Below, one piece after another: positions 14,620 through 52,373 of a DNA stretch of 64,000 nucleotides. The stretch comes from Candidatus Dormibacteria bacterium (GTDB taxonomy: Bacteria; Chloroflexota; Dormibacteria; Aeolococcales; Aeolococcaceae): the NCBI GenBank assembly GCA_050010655.1, contig JBEKKP010000003.1, forward strand, positions 6,498 to 70,497, read 5' to 3'. The notes below the pieces were generated by a model, which saw nothing but the letters and a program-made list of their open reading frames with translations, did no database searches and had not been told where the DNA came from. The translations under genes were made by a program, and so were the position numbers. Numbering within the stretch: the first letter of the stretch is position 1; each line of letters starts with the position of its first letter.

Positions 14620-16098
14620 TCAGGACGAGACGGCGACGGGAATCTCCAGCGCGAGCTTGTCCATCTCGAGCTGCGCCGGGACGTCCACCGGGTACGAGCC
14701 GGTGAAACACGCAAAACAGAAGCCGTTGCCATCGGGTTGCCCCATCGCGCGGCGCAGGCCCGCGAGGCTGAGATAGCGAAGCGAATCCGCTCCGAGCATC
14801 GCGCCGATCTCACGCTCGGTGTGGCCCGCGGCGATGAGCTCACGTCGCGACGCGATGTCGATGCCCATGAAACATGGCCATGCAATCGGCGGGGACGCGA
14901 TACGCATGTGCACCTCGCTCGCTCCCGCGCGGCGCAGTTCATCGATGATGCGACGCGATGTCGTGCCGCGCACGATCGAGTCGTCCACGAGCACCACGCG
15001 GCGGCCCTCGAGCACGTGGCGCATCGGATTGAACTTCAAGCGGATGCCCGCCTCGCGCAAACGCTGTGTCGGCTGGATGAACGTGCGCGTGATGTAGCGC
15101 GACTTGATCATCCCTTCCGCGAATGGCAATCCCGCCTGTTCGGCGTAGCCGATCGCCGCGGGCGTGCCGCTATCCGGCAGCGTGATGACGATGTCTCCGT
15201 CAGCCGGCGCCTCACGCGCGAGCTCGCGACCCATGTGGCGCCGCGACTCGTACAGGGACTTGCCCATCATCACGCTGTCGGGCCTCGCGAAGTAGATGAA
15301 CTCGAATGAACACATCGCGCGGTGCGCGGCGGTGCGCTGAATCTTGGTGCTGCGCATTCCGGATGCATCGACGGTCACGATTTCTCCGGGCTCGATCTCG
15401 CAGATGAACGTCGCACCGACGACATCGAGCGCGCAGGTTTCGCTGGCCATCACATAGCCGGTGCCGCCGGGTGCATCGATATCGCCGAAGCGGCCGAGGC
15501 ACAACGGGCGGATACCGAGCGGATCGCGCGCGGCGACGAGTGAGTCCTTGGTGAGGAACACGAGGCAGTACGCGCCCTCGACACGCGGCAGCGCCTCCGC
15601 GAGCGCCTGCTCCAGCGTGTCGGCCTCGGTCTGCGCGATCAGCGCACCGAGCACCTCGGTGTCACTCGTGGTCTCGAAATCGAAGCCCTTGGTGATGAGC
15701 TCATCGCGCAACTTGGTGGCGTTGACGAGGTTGCCGTTGTGTGCGATCACGACCGGGCCGATCGTAGGGTGCTCGACCGAGATGGGCTGCGCGTTGAGCA
15801 GCCGCGCGCTGCCGGTGGTGCTGTAGCGCGTGTGGCCTATTGCGATGTTGCCGCGGAGCCCGTCGATCGTCTCCTGGTCGAACACCTGGGACACGAGGCC
15901 CATTTCCTTGCAGATGCGAATTTCGCGACCGTCGCTGACCGCAATGCCCGCGGATTCCTGTCCGCGATGCTGCAACGAGTACAGGCCGAAATACGTCAGG
16001 TTGGCGACGTCCTCGCCCGGGTGGAACACCCCGAAGACGCCGCATTCCTCATGGAGATGGTCGTCGTCGATGGCGTTCAATCCGGCCTGATCACTCAC
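14620..16098 (-). CDS. purF: amidophosphoribosyltransferase
   Basis: N-terminal propeptide followed by CGVFGV (Ntn nucleophile), the PRTase motif [13 protein letters not shown] and C-terminal Fe-S cysteines. Confidence 0.9.
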
Positions 16099-18313
16099 GC
16101 TCGATCAACGCTCCTTCGTGTACCGCTCGCACGTCGGCGAGTGACACGTCGAGACATCCGGTCACGCAGACCCTCTCGCCCCCGACGGAGCCGAGACCGC
16201 GGAAGGGGACCGAGTGCCGCCCTGCCAGCTCGTGCAATCGCACAAGTGCCTCCCTGGCGAAGCTGATGACAAAACGAGATTGACTCTCACCGAAGAGTAT
16301 ACCGGCCGACCCGTTAATCAACCCTTCGCCGGTTTCGATCTCGTCGATCGCGATATTCGCGCCTATGTCGCCCAGCAGACATGACTCCGCAAGCGCGATC
16401 GCGATACCCCCCTCCGCGCAGTCATGCGCAGAGTGCAGGAGGCCCTCGGCGACCGCCTCGATGACGAAGGCCTGTACGCGACGCTCGAGCGCCAGGTCGA
16501 GGTGCGGCGGCGAGCCGGCGCTGACCCCGTGGGCGATTCGCTGGTACTCGCTGCCGTCGAGTTCGGACGCAACGGGGCCGACCAGCGCCACCACATCGCC
16601 CTCGTCCTGAAATCCCGCAGTGCAGCGCCGCGCCACGTCATCGATGACACCAACCATCCCGATGACGACCGTCGGATCGATCCCGGTGCCGCCGGTGTCG
16701 TTGTACAGGCTCACGTTGCCGCTCACCACTGGAATATCGAGTGCGATGCACGCCTCGCTGATGCCCTGGATCGCGTCGTGCAGGTCCCACCACACGTCGG
16801 CGTGCTCGGGATTGGCGAAATTCAGGCAATTCGTGATCGCCGCCGGCTGCGCACCGGTCGCGACGACATTTCGGGCCGCCTCGCAGACGGCGATCATCGC
16901 CCCCTGCCTCGCGTCCAGCGCGGTGTACCGCGAGTTGCCGTCGGTCGCAAGGGCGATGCCGAGGTGCGTGCCCTCGACGCGCACGAGCGCGGCATCGCCA
17001 CCGGGAAGGATCACCGTGGCGTCGCCGACCTGGTGGTCGTACCGGCGATACACGGAGGACCGGCTTCCCAGGTTCGGACTCCCCAGCAGCGCCAGCAGCG
17101 CCTCGCCCGCGGACCATTCCGGCGCCGTCCGCTCGGCTGCCGCCGGCGTCTTACGGTGGTCCGGACGGGGTCCCGGCGCCGTGCGCGGCGGTGCGCCGTC
17201 GACGAGCAGATCGAGCGGCAGATCGCATACCTGCTCGGCACCGTCACGAACCACAAAACGCTCGTCCGGGAGGATGACCGCGACGACGTCCGAATGCAGA
17301 TCCCAGCGTTCGAAGACCTCCTGCAGCGAGTGCACGTCCTCGGGCTTCGCAACGATCAACATGCGCTCCTGCGACTCACTCAGCATCACCTCATACGGCG
17401 TCATGCCCGTCTCACGACGCGAGGCGCGCGCGACGTCGACGTCGATGCCGCAATGACCTCGATGCGCAAGCTCCGCCGTGCTCCCGCAGAGACCCGCAGC
17501 GCCGAGGTCCTGCATCGCGATCACGCGTGGATCGCCGGCCAGCTCGAGACACGCCTCCATGAGGCACTTCTCGAGAAATGGATTGCCGACCTGCACGGCG
17601 GGACGTCGCGCGTTGCTGTCTGCGTCGAGAACCACCGACGCGAAACTGGCGCCGTGAATGCCATCACGACCGGTGTCGGCGCCGACGAGCAGGACAAGGT
17701 TGCCGGGACCGCTCGCGGTCGCGAGAGTCAGCTTGCCCTGCTCGACGATGCCCACGCACATCGCATTGACGAGACAGTTGGTCCGGTACGACTCGTCGAA
17801 ATACAGCTCCCCACCGACAGTTGGTACTCCGATGCAGTTGCCGTATCCACCGACACCGGCGACAACGCCGTCGAAGAGATGGCGTTGATGGGGCTCGTTG
17901 AGCGGACCGAAGCGCAGGGAGTCGAGCAGCGCGACCGGGCGTGCTCCCATCGTGAAGATGTCACGCAGAATCCCGCCGACACCGGTGGCAGCTCCCTGGT
18001 ACGGCTCGATCGCGCTCGGATGGTTGTGCGACTCGATCTTGAACACGCATGCGAGACCTTCGCCGATATCCACCGCACCGGCGTTCTCGCCCGGGCCTTG
18101 CAACACGCGCGGACCTTTAGTCGGCAGCGTGCCGAGCAGCGGCTTGCTCGTCTTGTAGCTGCAGTGCTCGCTCCACAGCGCGCCGACGATGCCGAGCTCG
18201 AGCCGGTTCGGCTCGCGTCCGAGAGCGTCGACAAGGTGCGCATACTCGCTGCGAGTGAGCGCCACCTCCGCGAGGTCCGCATCACTCGCCGCCGCGTATT
18301 GCATGGTGGTCAC
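16091..18313 (-). CDS. purL: phosphoribosylformylglycinamidine synthase subunit II
   Basis: 740 aa containing duplicated AIRS/AIRS_C modules ([17 protein letters not shown]...). Overlaps purQ by 4 nt and purF by 8 nt. Confidence 0.9.
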
Positions 18314-19029
18314 GACGCCGCAGCGACCGGCATCGCACCAGTGCGACTGACTGAGTTTGCGACGTTTTCAAACAGTCGCATCCCATCCGACGACCCGAGC
18401 ATCGGCTCACACGCACGCTCCGGGTGCGGCATCATCCCGAGCACATTGCGTCGCTCGCTGACGATCCCCGCAATATCGCGCATCGATCCATTCGGCGACT
18501 CATCACCAACAGGCGATCCGTCCCGTCGAACATAGCGAAACGCGACCCGCTGCTCACGTTCGAGCATGTCGAGCGTCGCTTCATCTGCAACAAACCGTCC
18601 CTCTCCATGCGACACCGGAACCTGGAGCACGTCACCCACCGCACATCCCGAGGTCACAGCGCTATCGGCGGTCTCAACGCGCAACCACGTTGGCACGCAA
18701 CGAAACTCCAGCGAACTGTTCCGCGTCAGCGCTCCCGGCAACAAATGCGCCTCACAGAGAATCTGAAACCCATTGCAGATTCCCCATACCAACCCACCGG
18801 CATTTGCAAACTCGGACACGGACTCCATCAAGGGCGCGAACCGCGCAACCGCTCCCGCTCGCAAGTAGTCGCCATACGCAAACCCACCCGGGAGGATCAC
18901 GCAATCCGCACCCTGCAGATCCCGATCCTTGTGCCACAGCATCACCGCCCCGTGCCCCGCGAGTTCGACCGCGTGCTTGCAATCTCTGTCCGACCACGTC
19001 CCTGGGAACACGGCTATTCCGAATCTCAT
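18310..19029 (-). CDS. purQ: phosphoribosylformylglycinamidine synthase subunit I (glutaminase)
   Basis: [11 protein letters not shown]...[17 protein letters not shown]...GICNGFQIL...HPE has the type-1 glutamine amidotransferase triad. Confidence 0.9.
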
Positions 19030-19049
19030 CAGGACCCCCTGCGCCGCAA

Positions 19050-19175
19050 GGTGGGGAGGGCATGGACTGCGCTGGGCACGGGGTCGGAACGCCTTTGCCG
19101 TTCCGCCCCTCGCTCTCGCCGGGGGGGGTAGCCCCGGCTCCGAGACGGCCCCGCTCCGTTCATGCCCTCCCCACC
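19050..19175. repeat. 126-bp structured element bounded by a perfect 15-bp inverted repeat (GGTGGGGAGGGCATG ... CATGCCCTCCCCACC), possibly a MITE/REP-like insertion or a cis-RNA
   Basis: Perfect 15-bp arms at 19050-19064 and 19161-19175, seen directly in the sequence. The interior holds two further GC-rich hairpins (GGAACG/CGTTCC and GCCGGGG/CCCCGGC). The right arm is the last codons of the purS ORF. Confidence 0.5.
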
Positions 19176-19177
19176 AC

Positions 19178-19447
19178 TCACAGCCCAGTACCCGATAGCG
19201 CTCTTATCGATCCGATGTGGGAGTCCTCGATCACGGTGTTGCGCAAGAGTTGCTCGCACATCGCTTCGACTTGCGCTCGCACCGACGCCTCGTCGTCACC
19301 CTCGACCTCGAGCTCCAAATATTTCCCGACGCGCACCGATCGCACCTCCGGAAATCCGAGCCGGTGAAGTCCGTCGCGTACCACGAGGCCCTGAGGGTCG
19401 TTGACCACGGGCTTCAACACGACGACGACTTCGACCGCGAAGGTCAT
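19178..19447 (-). CDS. purS: phosphoribosylformylglycinamidine synthase subunit PurS (with an apparent 11-aa C-terminal extension)
   Basis: MTFAVEVVVVLKPVVNDPQGLVVRDGLHRLGF...VGKYLELEVEGDDEASVRAQVEAMCEQLL is typical PurS. The ATG start overlaps the purC stop (ATGA). The tail GSIRALSGTGL is read from the inverted-repeat element. Confidence 0.8.
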   Translation of the reverse strand: MTFAVEVVVVLKPVVNDPQGLVVRDGLHRLGFPEVRSVRVGKYLELEVEGDDEASVRAQVEAMCEQLLRNTVIEDSHIGSIRALSGTGL

Positions 19448-20340
19448 TCGGCATTCACCCCTGCGATCTCGATTCCGCAGATGCGACGAGCGGCTTCTAT
19501 GTAGCGCTGGGTGGTACCGCGAACGACGTCTTCGGGAAGCTCCGGTCCGGGATATGTCTTGCCCCAGCCCAATGTCTCCGTGTAGTCGCGCACGAACTGC
19601 TTGTCGAAGGAGACTGCGGGTTCGCCTTCGCGCCATTGGGACATCTCCCAGAAGCGCGAGGAATCCGGAGTGAAGATTTCGTCGATGAGCGTCAGTTTCC
19701 CGTTGATGAAACCGAACTCGAACTTGGTGTCGGCGAGGTAGATGCCCTGAGCCTGGCAGCGTGCCGTTGCGAAGTCGAACAAGCGTAGCGACGCAGACTC
19801 CAACTCATCCGCGAGCGACTGGCCGAGGAGTGTGCGGAGCTCCTGACGCGAGATGTTGATGTCGTGGCCGTCGTCCTTCTTGATTGCCGGCGTGAAGCGC
19901 GGCGACGGGAGTCGCGAGGAGTCGCGCAGACCTTCCTGCAGCGGCTCGCCTGCGAGCGTTCCCTTCTCGCGATATTCCTTCCATCCGGATCCGCTGATGA
20001 ATCCGCGGACGACACACTCCACGTCGATCCGCTGCGCGCGAGCTACGTGCATCGAACGCGGTAGCCAGTCCTCGCGGACCGATTCCGGAATTGCCTCCTC
20101 GTCGTCGGCGAGCAGGTGATTCGGCATGATCGCCTGCGTCTGCGCGAACCACCAGCGCGACATCTGTGTGAGCACTGTGCCCTTCCCCGGAATCGGCGTC
20201 GGGAGCACGACATCGAACACGCTCAAGCGGTCGGTTGCGATCATCAAAAGGGTTCCGTCGGCCAGCTGAAACGTGTCCCGCACCTTGCCGCGCCGGAACA
20301 GGTTCAGGTCACCGATCTCCGCGCTGCTCATCACCTGCAT
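19444..20340 (-). CDS. purC: phosphoribosylaminoimidazole-succinocarboxamide synthase
   Basis: GKVRDTF...LLMIATDRLSVFDVVLP...YLADTKFEFG is the SAICAR synthetase signature. Confidence 0.9.
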   Translation of the reverse strand: MQVMSSAEIGDLNLFRRGKVRDTFQLADGTLLMIATDRLSVFDVVLPTPIPGKGTVLTQMSRWWFAQTQAIMPNHLLADDEEAIPESVREDWLPRSMHVARAQRIDVECVVRGFISGSGWKEYREKGTLAGEPLQEGLRDSSRLPSPRFTPAIKKDDGHDINISRQELRTLLGQSLADELESASLRLFDFATARCQAQGIYLADTKFEFGFINGKLTLIDEIFTPDSSRFWEMSQWREGEPAVSFDKQFVRDYTETLGWGKTYPGPELPEDVVRGTTQRYIEAARRICGIEIAGVNAE

Positions 20341-21719
20341 CAGCTCATCCTCCCACCGGCCAGGCCGGCCTCAATTGCAAGCACCGGCGCCGAAGCGTTG
20401 TGGGGTGCTCGTTCTGCTGTTGTCGTCGAAAGACCAAGACGTCGGTAGGTCACGTCGATATTCGCCAGATACGGTTCGACGTCGAAACACTGTGCGATCG
20501 TCGCTTCGGACAGAGCACTTGAGATGTCCGCGTCGACCGAGACGAGGTCGCGAAACGAACCCTCGTCGTCACGGGCACGAGCGGTGAGCGCCTGCACTGC
20601 CCGATATGCGCGCTCGCGGGGCCATTCGGCTTCGACAATCAGCGCGGTGAGCACTTGTTGCGAGAACACGATGCCGCCGTGCAACTCGATGTTCGCTGCC
20701 ATGTTCTCTGACTTGACGCGCAGCCCTTCGACGATCCGTGTGGAAAGCCGCACGATGTAATCGCTCAATGCGCAGGCGTCGGGCAGGATCACACGCTCCG
20801 CGGACGAGTGCGAGATGTCGCGCTCATGCCAGAGAGCGACGTCTTCCATTGCAGTCATCGCGTAGCCGCGGAGGACGCGGGCGAGCCCGCAGATGCGCTC
20901 GCAGAGAATCGGATTCCGCTTGTGGGGCATGGACGATGAGCCCTTCTGGCGCTGCCCGAACGGCTCCTCGGCTTCGTCGACTTCGGTGATCTGGAGCAGC
21001 CGGATCGTCGTCGCGAGACGCTCGAGAACGGCGCCGAGCAACGCAAGCGCGGTGAGGAACGACGCATGACGATCACGCGCGATTACCTGCGTTGCGACAG
21101 GAGCGGTCGCCAGTTTGAGGTGCGCGCACACGTGCTCCTCAACCTCCGGCGGAACACTCGCATGCGTGCCGATTGTCCCGGTGATCTTCCCGACAGCGAT
21201 CTCCACAGTCGCCGCCGCGAGCCGTTCGCGTGCGCGACGCACCTCATCGAGGTGATTCGCGAGCTTTATGCCGAGGGTCAGCGGTTCCGCGTGAACGCCG
21301 TGGGTGCGACCCATCATCACCGTGAGCCGGTGGCGCTCCGCCTGCTCGATCAACGCCCCGACCAGGGATTCGACATCGGCATCGATCACCGCTGCAGCGT
21401 CGCGGAGCTGCGTGGACAGGGCCGTGTCGACCACGTCAGACGAGGTCAGGCCGAGGTGGAAATACCGGCCGGCGTCACCGATTGTCTCCTGGATGGCGGA
21501 GACGAATGCCGCGATGTCGTGCCCTTGCTCAGCCTCGAGCTCAGCAATGCGCTCGGCATCGATCGTTGCTCTCTGGAGGACCGAAAGGGCCTCGACCGGA
21601 ATCCGGCCGACCTCCGCCCAACCCTCACACGCGAGCAACTCGACATCCAGCCAGCGTTGCAGCCGCGAGGTGTCACTGAAGATCTTCGCGATCTGCTGCG
21701 GGGCGTACCGGGGGATCAC
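20340..21719 (-). CDS. purB: adenylosuccinate lyase
   Basis: Fumarate-lyase family sequence (GLTSSDVVDTAL, GRTHGVHAEP, SSSMPHKRNP). The start codon is GTG at 21719. Confidence 0.9.
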   Translation of the reverse strand: MIPRYAPQQIAKIFSDTSRLQRWLDVELLACEGWAEVGRIPVEALSVLQRATIDAERIAELEAEQGHDIAAFVSAIQETIGDAGRYFHLGLTSSDVVDTALSTQLRDAAAVIDADVESLVGALIEQAERHRLTVMMGRTHGVHAEPLTLGIKLANHLDEVRRARERLAAATVEIAVGKITGTIGTHASVPPEVEEHVCAHLKLATAPVATQVIARDRHASFLTALALLGAVLERLATTIRLLQITEVDEAEEPFGQRQKGSSSMPHKRNPILCERICGLARVLRGYAMTAMEDVALWHERDISHSSAERVILPDACALSDYIVRLSTRIVEGLRVKSENMAANIELHGGIVFSQQVLTALIVEAEWPRERAYRAVQALTARARDDEGSFRDLVSVDADISSALSEATIAQCFDVEPYLANIDVTYRRLGLSTTTAERAPHNASAPVLAIEAGLAGGRMS

Positions 21720-51089: not shown

Positions 51090-52256
51090 TCAGATCGAGC
51101 GGTCGATCAGCGTGCCTGTTCCGAGGCCCCCGCCACAGCACATCGCCTGCAGGCCGTATCGGGCGTCGCGCCGCTCGAGCTCGTGGAGGAGGGTGGTCAT
51201 GAGCCGTGCCCCGCTCGCGCCGAGCGGGTGGCCCAGCGCGATGGCGCCGCCGTTGACATTGACGCGGTCCATGTCCGGGTGGTGCTCCTGCTCCCACGCC
51301 AGGACGACGGGCGCGAAGGCCTCGTTGATCTCGAACAGGTCGATGTCGTCGATCCCGAGGCCCGATCGCTCGAGCAGCCTGGTCGTTGCGGGAATCGGTC
51401 CGGTGAGCATCGTGACCGGGTCCACGCCGACCACGGTCTGACCGGCGATGCGTGCGCGGGGCGTGATGCCGAGCTCGGTCGCGCGCTCCAGCGACATCAG
51501 CAGCACGGCGGCCGCGCCGTCGGTGATCTGCGAGCTGTTGCCTGCGTGCATGATGCCGTCGGGCTTGAAGGCCGGCTGCAGCGACGCCAGCGACTCGGCG
51601 GTGGTGTCCGGGCGGATGCCCTGGTCCTGGCTGATCACGCGGCCGTCGCCGTTGGCGCCGACCACGACAGGCGCGATCTCGCGGTCGAACCACCCGTTCG
51701 CCTGCGCCTCACCGGCGCGGCGTTGGGAGCGGGCCGCGAACTCGTCTGCCTGCTCACGGGTGATGTGCCACATCTCCGCGATCATCTCCGCGGACAGTCC
51801 CTGGGGCACCAGGTTGTAGACCTCGAGCAACTCTGGCGGGAACGGCATCCCGGGACCCTGGAACACCGTCGTTCCCATCGGCACGCGGCTCATGCTCTCC
51901 ACGCCCGCGGCGATCGTGATGTCGCAGACGCCGGACTGGATCAGGTTCGCGGCGAAGTGGATTGCCTGTTGCGACGAGCCGCACTGGCGATCGACCGTCG
52001 TTGCCGGCACCTCGACGGGAAACCCGGCGGCGAGCACTGCCTGCCGCGCGATGTTCACGGCCTGCTCGCCGGTCTGGCTCACGCATCCGAAGATGACGTC
52101 GCCAACCAGCGCGGGGTCGATGGCTGCGCGGCTGGTCACCTCGCGGAGCACGTGGGCCGCCAGGAGAACGGGATGCACGTCGCGGAGATCGCCGTTGCGC
52201 TGGTTGCCGCGCCCCATCGGCGTCCGGACGGCTTCGACGATGACGACGTCAGTCAT
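51090..52256 (-). CDS. acetyl-CoA C-acyltransferase (thiolase)
   Basis: VIVEAVRTPMGR...active-site Cys region...C-terminal CGGGLG. Confidence 0.9.
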   Translation of the reverse strand: MTDVVIVEAVRTPMGRGNQRNGDLRDVHPVLLAAHVLREVTSRAAIDPALVGDVIFGCVSQTGEQAVNIARQAVLAAGFPVEVPATTVDRQCGSSQQAIHFAANLIQSGVCDITIAAGVESMSRVPMGTTVFQGPGMPFPPELLEVYNLVPQGLSAEMIAEMWHITREQADEFAARSQRRAGEAQANGWFDREIAPVVVGANGDGRVISQDQGIRPDTTAESLASLQPAFKPDGIMHAGNSSQITDGAAAVLLMSLERATELGITPRARIAGQTVVGVDPVTMLTGPIPATTRLLERSGLGIDDIDLFEINEAFAPVVLAWEQEHHPDMDRVNVNGGAIALGHPLGASGARLMTTLLHELERRDARYGLQAMCCGGGLGTGTLIDRSI

Positions 52257-52262
52257 AGCTCA

Positions 52263-52325
52263 CCTGATTGAACACCCTGAATCGACTCACCCTGAATTGC
52301 GCCCTGAAGTCGCGCGCCTGAATTT
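52263..52325. promoter_or_regulatory. array of five direct CCTGA(A/T)T heptamer repeats (minus strand ATTCAGG) spaced 12-15 bp apart, running into the thiolase RBS
   Basis: Copies at 52263, 52276, 52291, 52303 and 52317. Several are extended to CCCTGAAT. Confidence 0.4.
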
Positions 52326-52373
52326 GCCCGTAATTTGTTCGACCGGGCGCCCACCTTAGCAGCGGGAGGTCTT

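Follow-up and report, generated by a model that had tools for sequence, protein, structure and literature searches.

The spacer between purS and purQ in the window, by which we mean the whole 64,000-nt stretch of DNA analysed here, is best explained as an inserted, non-autonomous palindromic repeat of the MITE/ERIC-like type that probably acts as a translation-coupling relay, a reading to which we assign a probability of about 0.6. The element belongs to a dispersed family whose copies lie in both orientations, conserve their palindrome and carry an in-frame relay ORF. From the sequences we infer that the element is translated, that coupling is the benefit selected and how the family moves. 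It appears to be built to be translationally transparent at junctions that are normally coupled by stop/start overlap. The first-pass annotation of this DNA had recognised the inverted-repeat structure and overlooked that the spacer is, over its whole length, a small ORF that overlaps the purS stop at one end and the purQ start at the other.

All genes of the pur region lie on the minus strand, in the order purB (20340-21719), purC (19444-20340), purS (19178-19447), purQ (18310-19029), purL (16091-18313) and purF (14620-16098). purS encodes 89 aa and ends with TGA at 19180-19178; its assignment rests on the ORF and its translation, a Pfam PurS match on the identical protein of metagenome contigs and homologues of 89 aa. 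purQ (239 aa, ATG at 19029-19027) was assigned from its ORF and a Pfam GATase_5 match on a near-identical protein, and is preceded by AGGGGG (19035-19040, minus strand), read off the sequence 5 nt upstream of the ATG as the likely purQ Shine-Dalgarno (SD) motif. The gap between the two genes measures 148 nt (19030-19177), in agreement with the earlier estimate. It is spanned by a relay ORF of 50 codons plus stop (19029-19181, minus strand; translation VSGGEGMNGAGPSRSRGYPPRRERGAERQRRSDPVPSAVHALPTLRRRGS), which starts with GTG at 19181-19179, overlapping the purS stop as GTGA, and ends with TGA at 19031-19029, overlapping the purQ ATG as TGATG. With this ORF included, stop/start overlaps form an unbroken chain from purB to purF: purB-TGATG-purC-ATGA-purS-GTGA-relay-TGATG-purQ-GTGA-purL-(8-nt overlap)-purF. 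None of the six other co-directional gaps of at least 100 nt in the window has such an ORF. Comparison with relatives that lack the element, which had been proposed as a check, was informative: in more distant Dormibacterota, including Ca. Dormibacter spiritus, the element is absent and purS and purQ overlap by 4 nt. In other phyla the two genes mostly overlap or are separated by a short spacer. One Dormibacteraeota MAG (L016, CAWKKS010000002.1; PurQ 76% identical) has purS and purQ about 4.6 kb apart, with other ORFs between them, and contains no element copy.

The element occupies 126 bp, or 42 codons, of the spacer (19050-19175, minus strand; orientation A relative to transcription), as delimited by a 22-copy alignment and matched by the family profile in nhmmer with E = 7e-36. 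Its arms are GGTGGGGAGGGCATG at 19050-19064 and the exact reverse complement CATGCCCTCCCCACC at 19161-19175, the perfect 15-bp inverted repeat that the first-pass annotation had described. The pairing extends to 28 nt at 86% complementarity and is the strongest inverted repeat of the 64-kb window. On the mRNA strand the upstream terminal repeat reads GGTGGGGAGGGCATGAAC (19158-19175, minus strand) and the downstream one GTCCATGCCCTCCCCACC (19050-19067, minus strand), with one mismatch between them; in close relatives the terminal stem is perfect over 18 bp. Each terminal repeat takes the form GGGGAGGGC-ATGA-AC, in which SD-like purines precede a start codon overlapped by a stop; in the upstream repeat these are GGGGAGGG, the in-frame ATG at 19163-19161 and the TGA that overlaps it (ATGA). 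Two GC-rich hairpins had been claimed between the arms, and both are present: inner hairpin 1 (GCCGGGG CTACCCC CCCCGGC; 19118-19138, minus strand) corresponds to helix 4 of the consensus structure, and inner hairpin 2 (GGGGCGGAACGGC AAA GGCGTTCCGACCCC; 19080-19109, minus strand), recovered by an inverted-repeat search, corresponds to helix 5. On both strands of the consensus, frame 0 (that of the repeat ATG) and frame +2 are open and frame +1 is closed by the TGA of the repeat. The combination of SD-ATGA repeats, a length of 42 codons and an ATG frame open on both strands would therefore create a small relay ORF together with the flanks.

The transcribed strand folds with -92.9 kcal/mol (z = -4.14; 0 of 200 shuffles as stable), and the consensus fold has an outer stem of 18 bp, then a second helix, and a three-way junction from which two hairpins branch. 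In the 22-copy alignment 98.5% of the cells at paired positions are paired and 19 of the 48 pairs show compensatory changes, values reached by none of 500 shuffles, slid controls being 43-51% paired. At columns 42:56 of inner hairpin 1, 12 copies have a CG pair and the other 10 a GC pair. The check by folding and covariation suggested earlier thus had a positive outcome. Transition-type mismatches read in the mRNA sense comprise 14 A.C and 5 G.U, an excess opposite to that predicted by RNA-level selection, and selection on the mRNA fold is not supported. As both orientations are in use, the two transcripts are complementary. Together with the A.C excess, this makes it more likely that the palindrome is kept at the DNA level, through mobility or arm homogenisation, than as a specific RNA. 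An Rfam 15 search over the 64 kb gave 0 matches at gathering thresholds and, at E up to 10, chance-level miRNA and snoRNA matches only (E >= 1.6). No intrinsic terminator, terminator-like U tract or sigma-70 promoter was found in the purS-purQ spacer.

A MITE/REP-like insertion had been proposed from the window alone and is now supported by the presence of the 126-bp element, in either orientation, at no fewer than six further loci. The insertion reading is also backed by near-identical copies at unrelated loci, remnants of older copies, a deletion footprint and absence from distant Dormibacterota. The suggested search for extra copies was successful in relatives, at other loci, and found none elsewhere in the 64-kb window, in which arm-like 15-mers (up to three mismatches) occur at chance level only. 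When metagenomes were scanned with an internal 18-mer, 12 true copies were recovered, three at purS-purQ and nine elsewhere. The flanks outside pur are sucC and sucD, an ABC ATPase and an ABC-2 permease, a giant Ig-like Big_3_5 protein and transaldolase, an unknown gene and a DUF503-like gene upstream of which the copy lies, and an unknown gene and a convergent methyltransferase. The exact PurS of the window was found on JGI soil metagenome contigs carrying the same element, and the named relatives are Candidatus Dormibacterota MAGs. A relative with 88% identical PurS (L012) has an orthologous element with compensatory changes in every stem. At purS-purQ in L014 and L015 the orientation is opposite to that in the window, and both orientations are seen at pur and at sucC-sucD. 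L015 (DATKQX010000134.1) is titled 'Candidatus Saccharimonadales bacterium' and contains a Dormibacterota-like pur operon with a divergent element copy (PurQ 82% and PurS 75% identical to those of the window); its taxonomic label is probably wrong.

The 22 distinct copies aligned have a mean identity of 91%, loops included, and show no grouping by locus: a single nucleotide separates the pur copy of L001 from the suc copy of L216, and the ABC copy is nearest to a suc copy. Exactly one copy is present in each of 24 element-bearing stretches (about 251 kb in total), so the family, which is dispersed in a Candidatus Dormibacterota clade, is apparently low-copy. A peptide search for more copies returned only 10 called ORFs, nearly all at sucC-sucD, because the relay ORF is rarely called by gene callers. 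In several metagenomes it was called independently, with 4-nt overlaps on both sides. As in MITEs, the element is small (126 bp) and bounded by terminal inverted repeats (a perfect terminal stem of 15-18 bp with compensatory changes), its copies are dispersed among pur, suc, ABC, transaldolase, DUF503-like and methyltransferase loci, and filled sites can be compared with the 4-nt overlap in distant Dormibacterota and with the 54/55-nt spacer of the lineage carrying protein P0107. No direct repeat that could represent a target-site duplication was found around any copy. The flanks instead often hold old repeat ends, and many contain significant remnants of older element ends (for example the sucC 3' end plus stop, and the pur right flank of L125). 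No similar DNA was found in plasmids, phages or viral contigs, nor did an autonomous partner of the element come to light.

Spacers in several lineages record further changes of the element. In the P0107 lineage (L233-L242, for example L233:971-1024) only GGGGGTGGGG joined to CCCTCCCC, the outer halves of the terminal repeats, is left, which reads as a deletion footprint. Its 54- and 55-nt variants differ by one C in a C-run, and the 55-nt form alone has a relay ORF (19 aa) overlapping both genes; most contigs of the lineage have the 54-nt spacer and are without an in-frame overlapping start. At L013:7803-7908 (NCBI MAG GCA_049287785.1) a clean 42-nt (14-codon) deletion has removed inner hairpin 2 and left the relay ORF intact. 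An apparent strain polymorphism of spacer length in the P0090 lineage was traced to differences in gene calling, all copies having a 160-nt spacer. At sucC-sucD, the last sucC codons and stop in L165, L168, L217, L220 and L221 match the element's left end (such as GGAGGGGAGCGCATGAACTGCGGTGGG), and an older copy thus seems to have contributed part of the SucC C-terminus in this clade. The element also accounts for practical artefacts, namely contig breaks or mis-joins at the repeat. Four contigs with the purS of the window (L004, L005, L009 and L010) end inside the element, and L003:5217-6113 leaves the element to enter the 3' end of sucC, which lies on the opposite strand; an assembly break or mis-join at the repeat is the most likely cause, a real rearrangement between two copies a less likely one.

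A spanning ORF crosses the whole spacer in 25 of 25 usable junctions (106-390 nt) from relatives and from other loci, each with an equivalent of the relay ORF of the window. These comprise 20 distinct tabulated junctions (121-390 nt) and five added ones (L224, L225, L230, L243 and L013). L011, in which the relay frame is broken, was set aside as a probable sequencing error because its contig has other frameshifts (purL and purF are split). The relay stop overlaps the downstream start in 24 of 25 junctions (19 of the 20 tabulated) and lies 6 nt upstream of it in the exception. At purQ the overlapping sequence is TGATG or TAATG, whereas at sucD, permease and transaldolase it is ATGA or GTGA. At its other end, the relay ORF begins with a start codon overlapping the upstream stop (xTGA) in all five added junctions and in 15 of the tabulated 20; the remaining five tabulated junctions have such an overlapping start in the wrong frame, which leaves the repeat ATG, 10-39 nt downstream, as the only usable one. 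The element and the relay stop are separated by 4 to 247 nt. The upstream gene of L192 and of L219 terminates at the TGA within the repeat's ATGA and has its last codons read from the repeat. Three long junctions, L125:1720-1976, L222:2327-2716 and L219:10005-10281 (256, 390 and 277 nt), contain a full copy plus extra DNA, with a degenerate older right arm in L125 and a short internal duplication in L219 (ALPSLGAFS twice in the relay peptide); the relay frame is open throughout all three.

Gaps of about 20 nt leave hardly any termination-reinitiation coupling in experiments with E. coli and Haloferax, and gene overlaps are enriched between subunits of heteromeric complexes (PMC10666635). PurS/PurQ, SucC/SucD and ABC ATPase/permease are subunit pairs of such complexes. 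A 126-bp hairpin would disrupt coupling unless the spacer were translated and overlapped both neighbours. In the model we propose, a ribosome ending at the purS UGA would re-initiate at the overlapping GUG or at the ATG of the repeat, melt the hairpin of about -90 kcal/mol by translating it, stop at the UGA that overlaps the purQ AUG and re-initiate there, and the coupling of purB-purC-purS-purQ-purL-purF would be maintained in spite of the 148-nt insertion. The inverted repeat itself carries the start module, which would permit function in both orientations. As the two orientations encode different peptides, the act of translation rather than the peptide would matter. The element may then be regarded as a mobile palindrome that is tolerated in, and perhaps adapted to, coupled junctions as a relay mini-cistron. 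This proposed mechanism is well supported by comparative sequence evidence. At somewhat less than even odds, it can be generalised to a class of mobile palindromes in which the terminal repeats serve as coupling modules (SD-ATGA) and the body as a 42-codon frame open on both strands, giving a relay in either orientation, and which may preferentially target stop/start-overlapping junctions or their own older copies. Details of the initiation region temper the model: the SD-like GGAGG ends just 2 nt before the repeat ATG, both are buried in the 18-bp stem, and purQ has its own SD outside the stem, so that purQ may not need coupling.

The same data can be read without any role for translation, the element being a purely selfish palindromic repeat whose frame is open as a side effect of high G+C, the 126-nt length and a mode of insertion or replacement that invariably hits ATGA-type junctions in one fixed geometry. 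Stop codons are scarce in GC-rich DNA, which makes any single relay ORF only weakly significant, and shuffled spacers keep the frame open in 12-64% of trials, depending on the junction. A second open frame in the element, older repeat ends at the same sites that suggest copies replacing one another, and the 54-nt footprint variant without an in-frame overlapping start would also be in keeping with a selfish repeat. We nevertheless consider this unlikely. The frame is kept in all 25 junctions, which share ancestry and are hence non-independent, although spacers at orthologous junctions vary from 106 to 390 nt. The insertions at the pur site (+12, +108 and +228 nt) are all multiples of three, and not a single stop occurs in the relay frame of 1,295 nt of unique, non-element flank, compared with 4 and 10 (14 in all) in the two alternative frames. 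A structured RNA on the operon mRNA, acting as a stabiliser against 3'-exonucleases or as an RNase III/RNase E site that sets the purS : purQL ratio, as in REP, ERIC and Correia elements, would account for the very stable fold, the strong covariation and the position in transcribed intercistronic spacers, and has precedents in ERIC and Correia (PMC2229807). We regard it as improbable, given that the same junction is found in both orientations, which yields complementary RNAs with different loops, that the A.C to G.U ratio in the mRNA sense runs contrary to RNA-level selection and that the spacer is devoid of a terminator-like U tract. It would also leave the conservation of the frame unexplained, though it could coexist with the relay ORF. 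The pur-specific form of this idea put forward in the first-pass annotation is unsupported, the element being present at non-purine loci and in either orientation.

Two regulatory readings account for less of the evidence. An inverton, a DNA switch flipped by a recombinase to vary expression of the downstream gene, would be consistent with a segment bounded by inverted repeats that is found in both orientations at orthologous sites. Yet among 10 places with the exact PurS of the window every contig that reaches the element has orientation A, and 10 of 10 of the P0090 lineage have B, so orientation is lineage-fixed. A metagenome scan for a flipped window allele returned 0 contigs, the element contains no promoter-like site, and an equivalent ORF from both orientations means that a flip would alter little; an inverton is thus very improbable. 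Still closer to zero is a purine-responsive riboswitch or attenuator. The location in a purine biosynthesis operon and the conserved three-way junction would suit it, but no Rfam family matches, either at gathering thresholds or credibly at E up to 10, the element works in either orientation, and its presence at sucC-sucD, ABC transporter genes and other non-purine loci refutes the idea in practice.

REPs are 20-40 bp long, number in the hundreds and owe their mobility to RAYT transposases. Like REP/BIME and REPIN sequences, the element is an extragenic palindrome in operon spacers with a conserved hairpin and either orientation; unlike REPs, its unit is 126 bp and its copy number apparently low. 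Mycobacterial interspersed repetitive units (MIRUs) are 46-101-bp direct, often tandem units that are non-palindromic and read in one orientation. The element, by contrast, is a single 126-bp hairpin bounded by terminal inverted repeats, has an equivalent ORF whichever strand is read, belongs to another phylum (Dormibacterota, not Mycobacterium) and has no sequence similarity to MIRUs. The review PMC12548453, which cites Supply et al. 1997, presents MIRUs as elements that insert at start codons, their repeat ORF being coupled at -4 spacing. As summarised there, they are short intercistronic operon repeats with a small ORF whose ends overlap the neighbours (by 4 nt), interpreted as allowing insertion with little effect on expression by virtue of coupling, and it is in these respects that the element resembles them (PMC12548453); the ends of its ORF likewise overlap the flanking stop and start codons. 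By analogy the element would work like a MIRU without being a member of that family, and the MIRU is its nearest functional precedent.

In structure the element recalls ERIC, YPAL and Rickettsia palindromic elements (RPEs), which have open frames and are co-transcribed with or fused to genes (PMC2229807, PMC10969869). ERIC/IRU sequences are 127-bp imperfect palindromes with terminal inverted repeats and a contiguous ORF, co-transcribed inside operons in both orientations (PMC2229807), and the element shares their size class, palindrome with terminal inverted repeats, contiguous ORF, operon location and use of both orientations. ERIC differs in its TA target duplications and in contiguous terminal pairing of about 7 bp. 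The effect described for ERIC is orientation-dependent destabilisation of mRNA, and a relay ORF overlapping stop and start codons is undescribed for it. Membership of ERIC was rejected, the host being Dormibacterota rather than enterobacterial or Vibrio, with no sequence similarity and no Rfam, plasmid or phage match. RPEs are palindromes of about 100-150 bp whose length and open frame allow translation after insertion (PMC10969869). L192 and L219, in which the last codons and stop of the upstream gene come from the repeat, are similar in this respect, but RPEs are in-frame fusions within coding sequences whereas the element is an intergenic mini-cistron bounded by overlapping stop and start codons. 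Assignment to MIRU, ERIC, YPAL or RPE was rejected overall on the basis of no sequence similarity, a different host, no TA or other target duplication and no tandem direct repeat. The element departs from these precedents by combining a palindrome with a start/stop module carried within its inverted repeat and with a relay ORF that is equivalent whichever way round the element lies.

Almost any spacer defeats coupling by termination-reinitiation, yet small repeats sit within essential operons. The family described here provides a clean natural test of how a genome or an element copes with this conflict, the spacer having been made a mini-cistron that overlaps both neighbours. If the relay reading is correct, it would extend the single MIRU precedent to a palindromic element of an unrelated, uncultured phylum and offer a portable design for coupling cassettes. 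It would also serve as a warning to annotators that 'intergenic hairpins' within operons of high-GC genomes can be translated.

Earlier statements about the PurS C-terminus require revision. The right arm had been said to supply the last codons of purS; however, the purS TGA is at 19180-19178 and the arm begins 3 nt further downstream. Nor does PurS carry about 11 extra residues read out of the element: the stop lies outside the arm, the length of 89 aa is conserved and the tails of solved PurS proteins are about as long. Nearly all of the best 120 homologues have 89 aa and the common tail ...VIEDSRIxSxRxLxxxxx, and the number of residues after VIED/VIEE is 11 in B. subtilis PurS (84 aa), 13 in 8j3n (89 aa) and 14 in the PurS of the window. 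One protein of 146 aa (P0078, from a single ENA contig) has a PurS ORF that does continue into a B-oriented element copy (…GWGGHELRRARGRNAFAVPPLTLAGGGSPG…), and reads as a stop-loss or frameshift fusion. Elsewhere in the window, a 117-nt spacer (52257-52373, minus strand) upstream of a thiolase gene (51090-52256) contains five copies of TTCAGG(G) spaced about 10-13 nt apart, which look like reiterated binding sites for a regulator.
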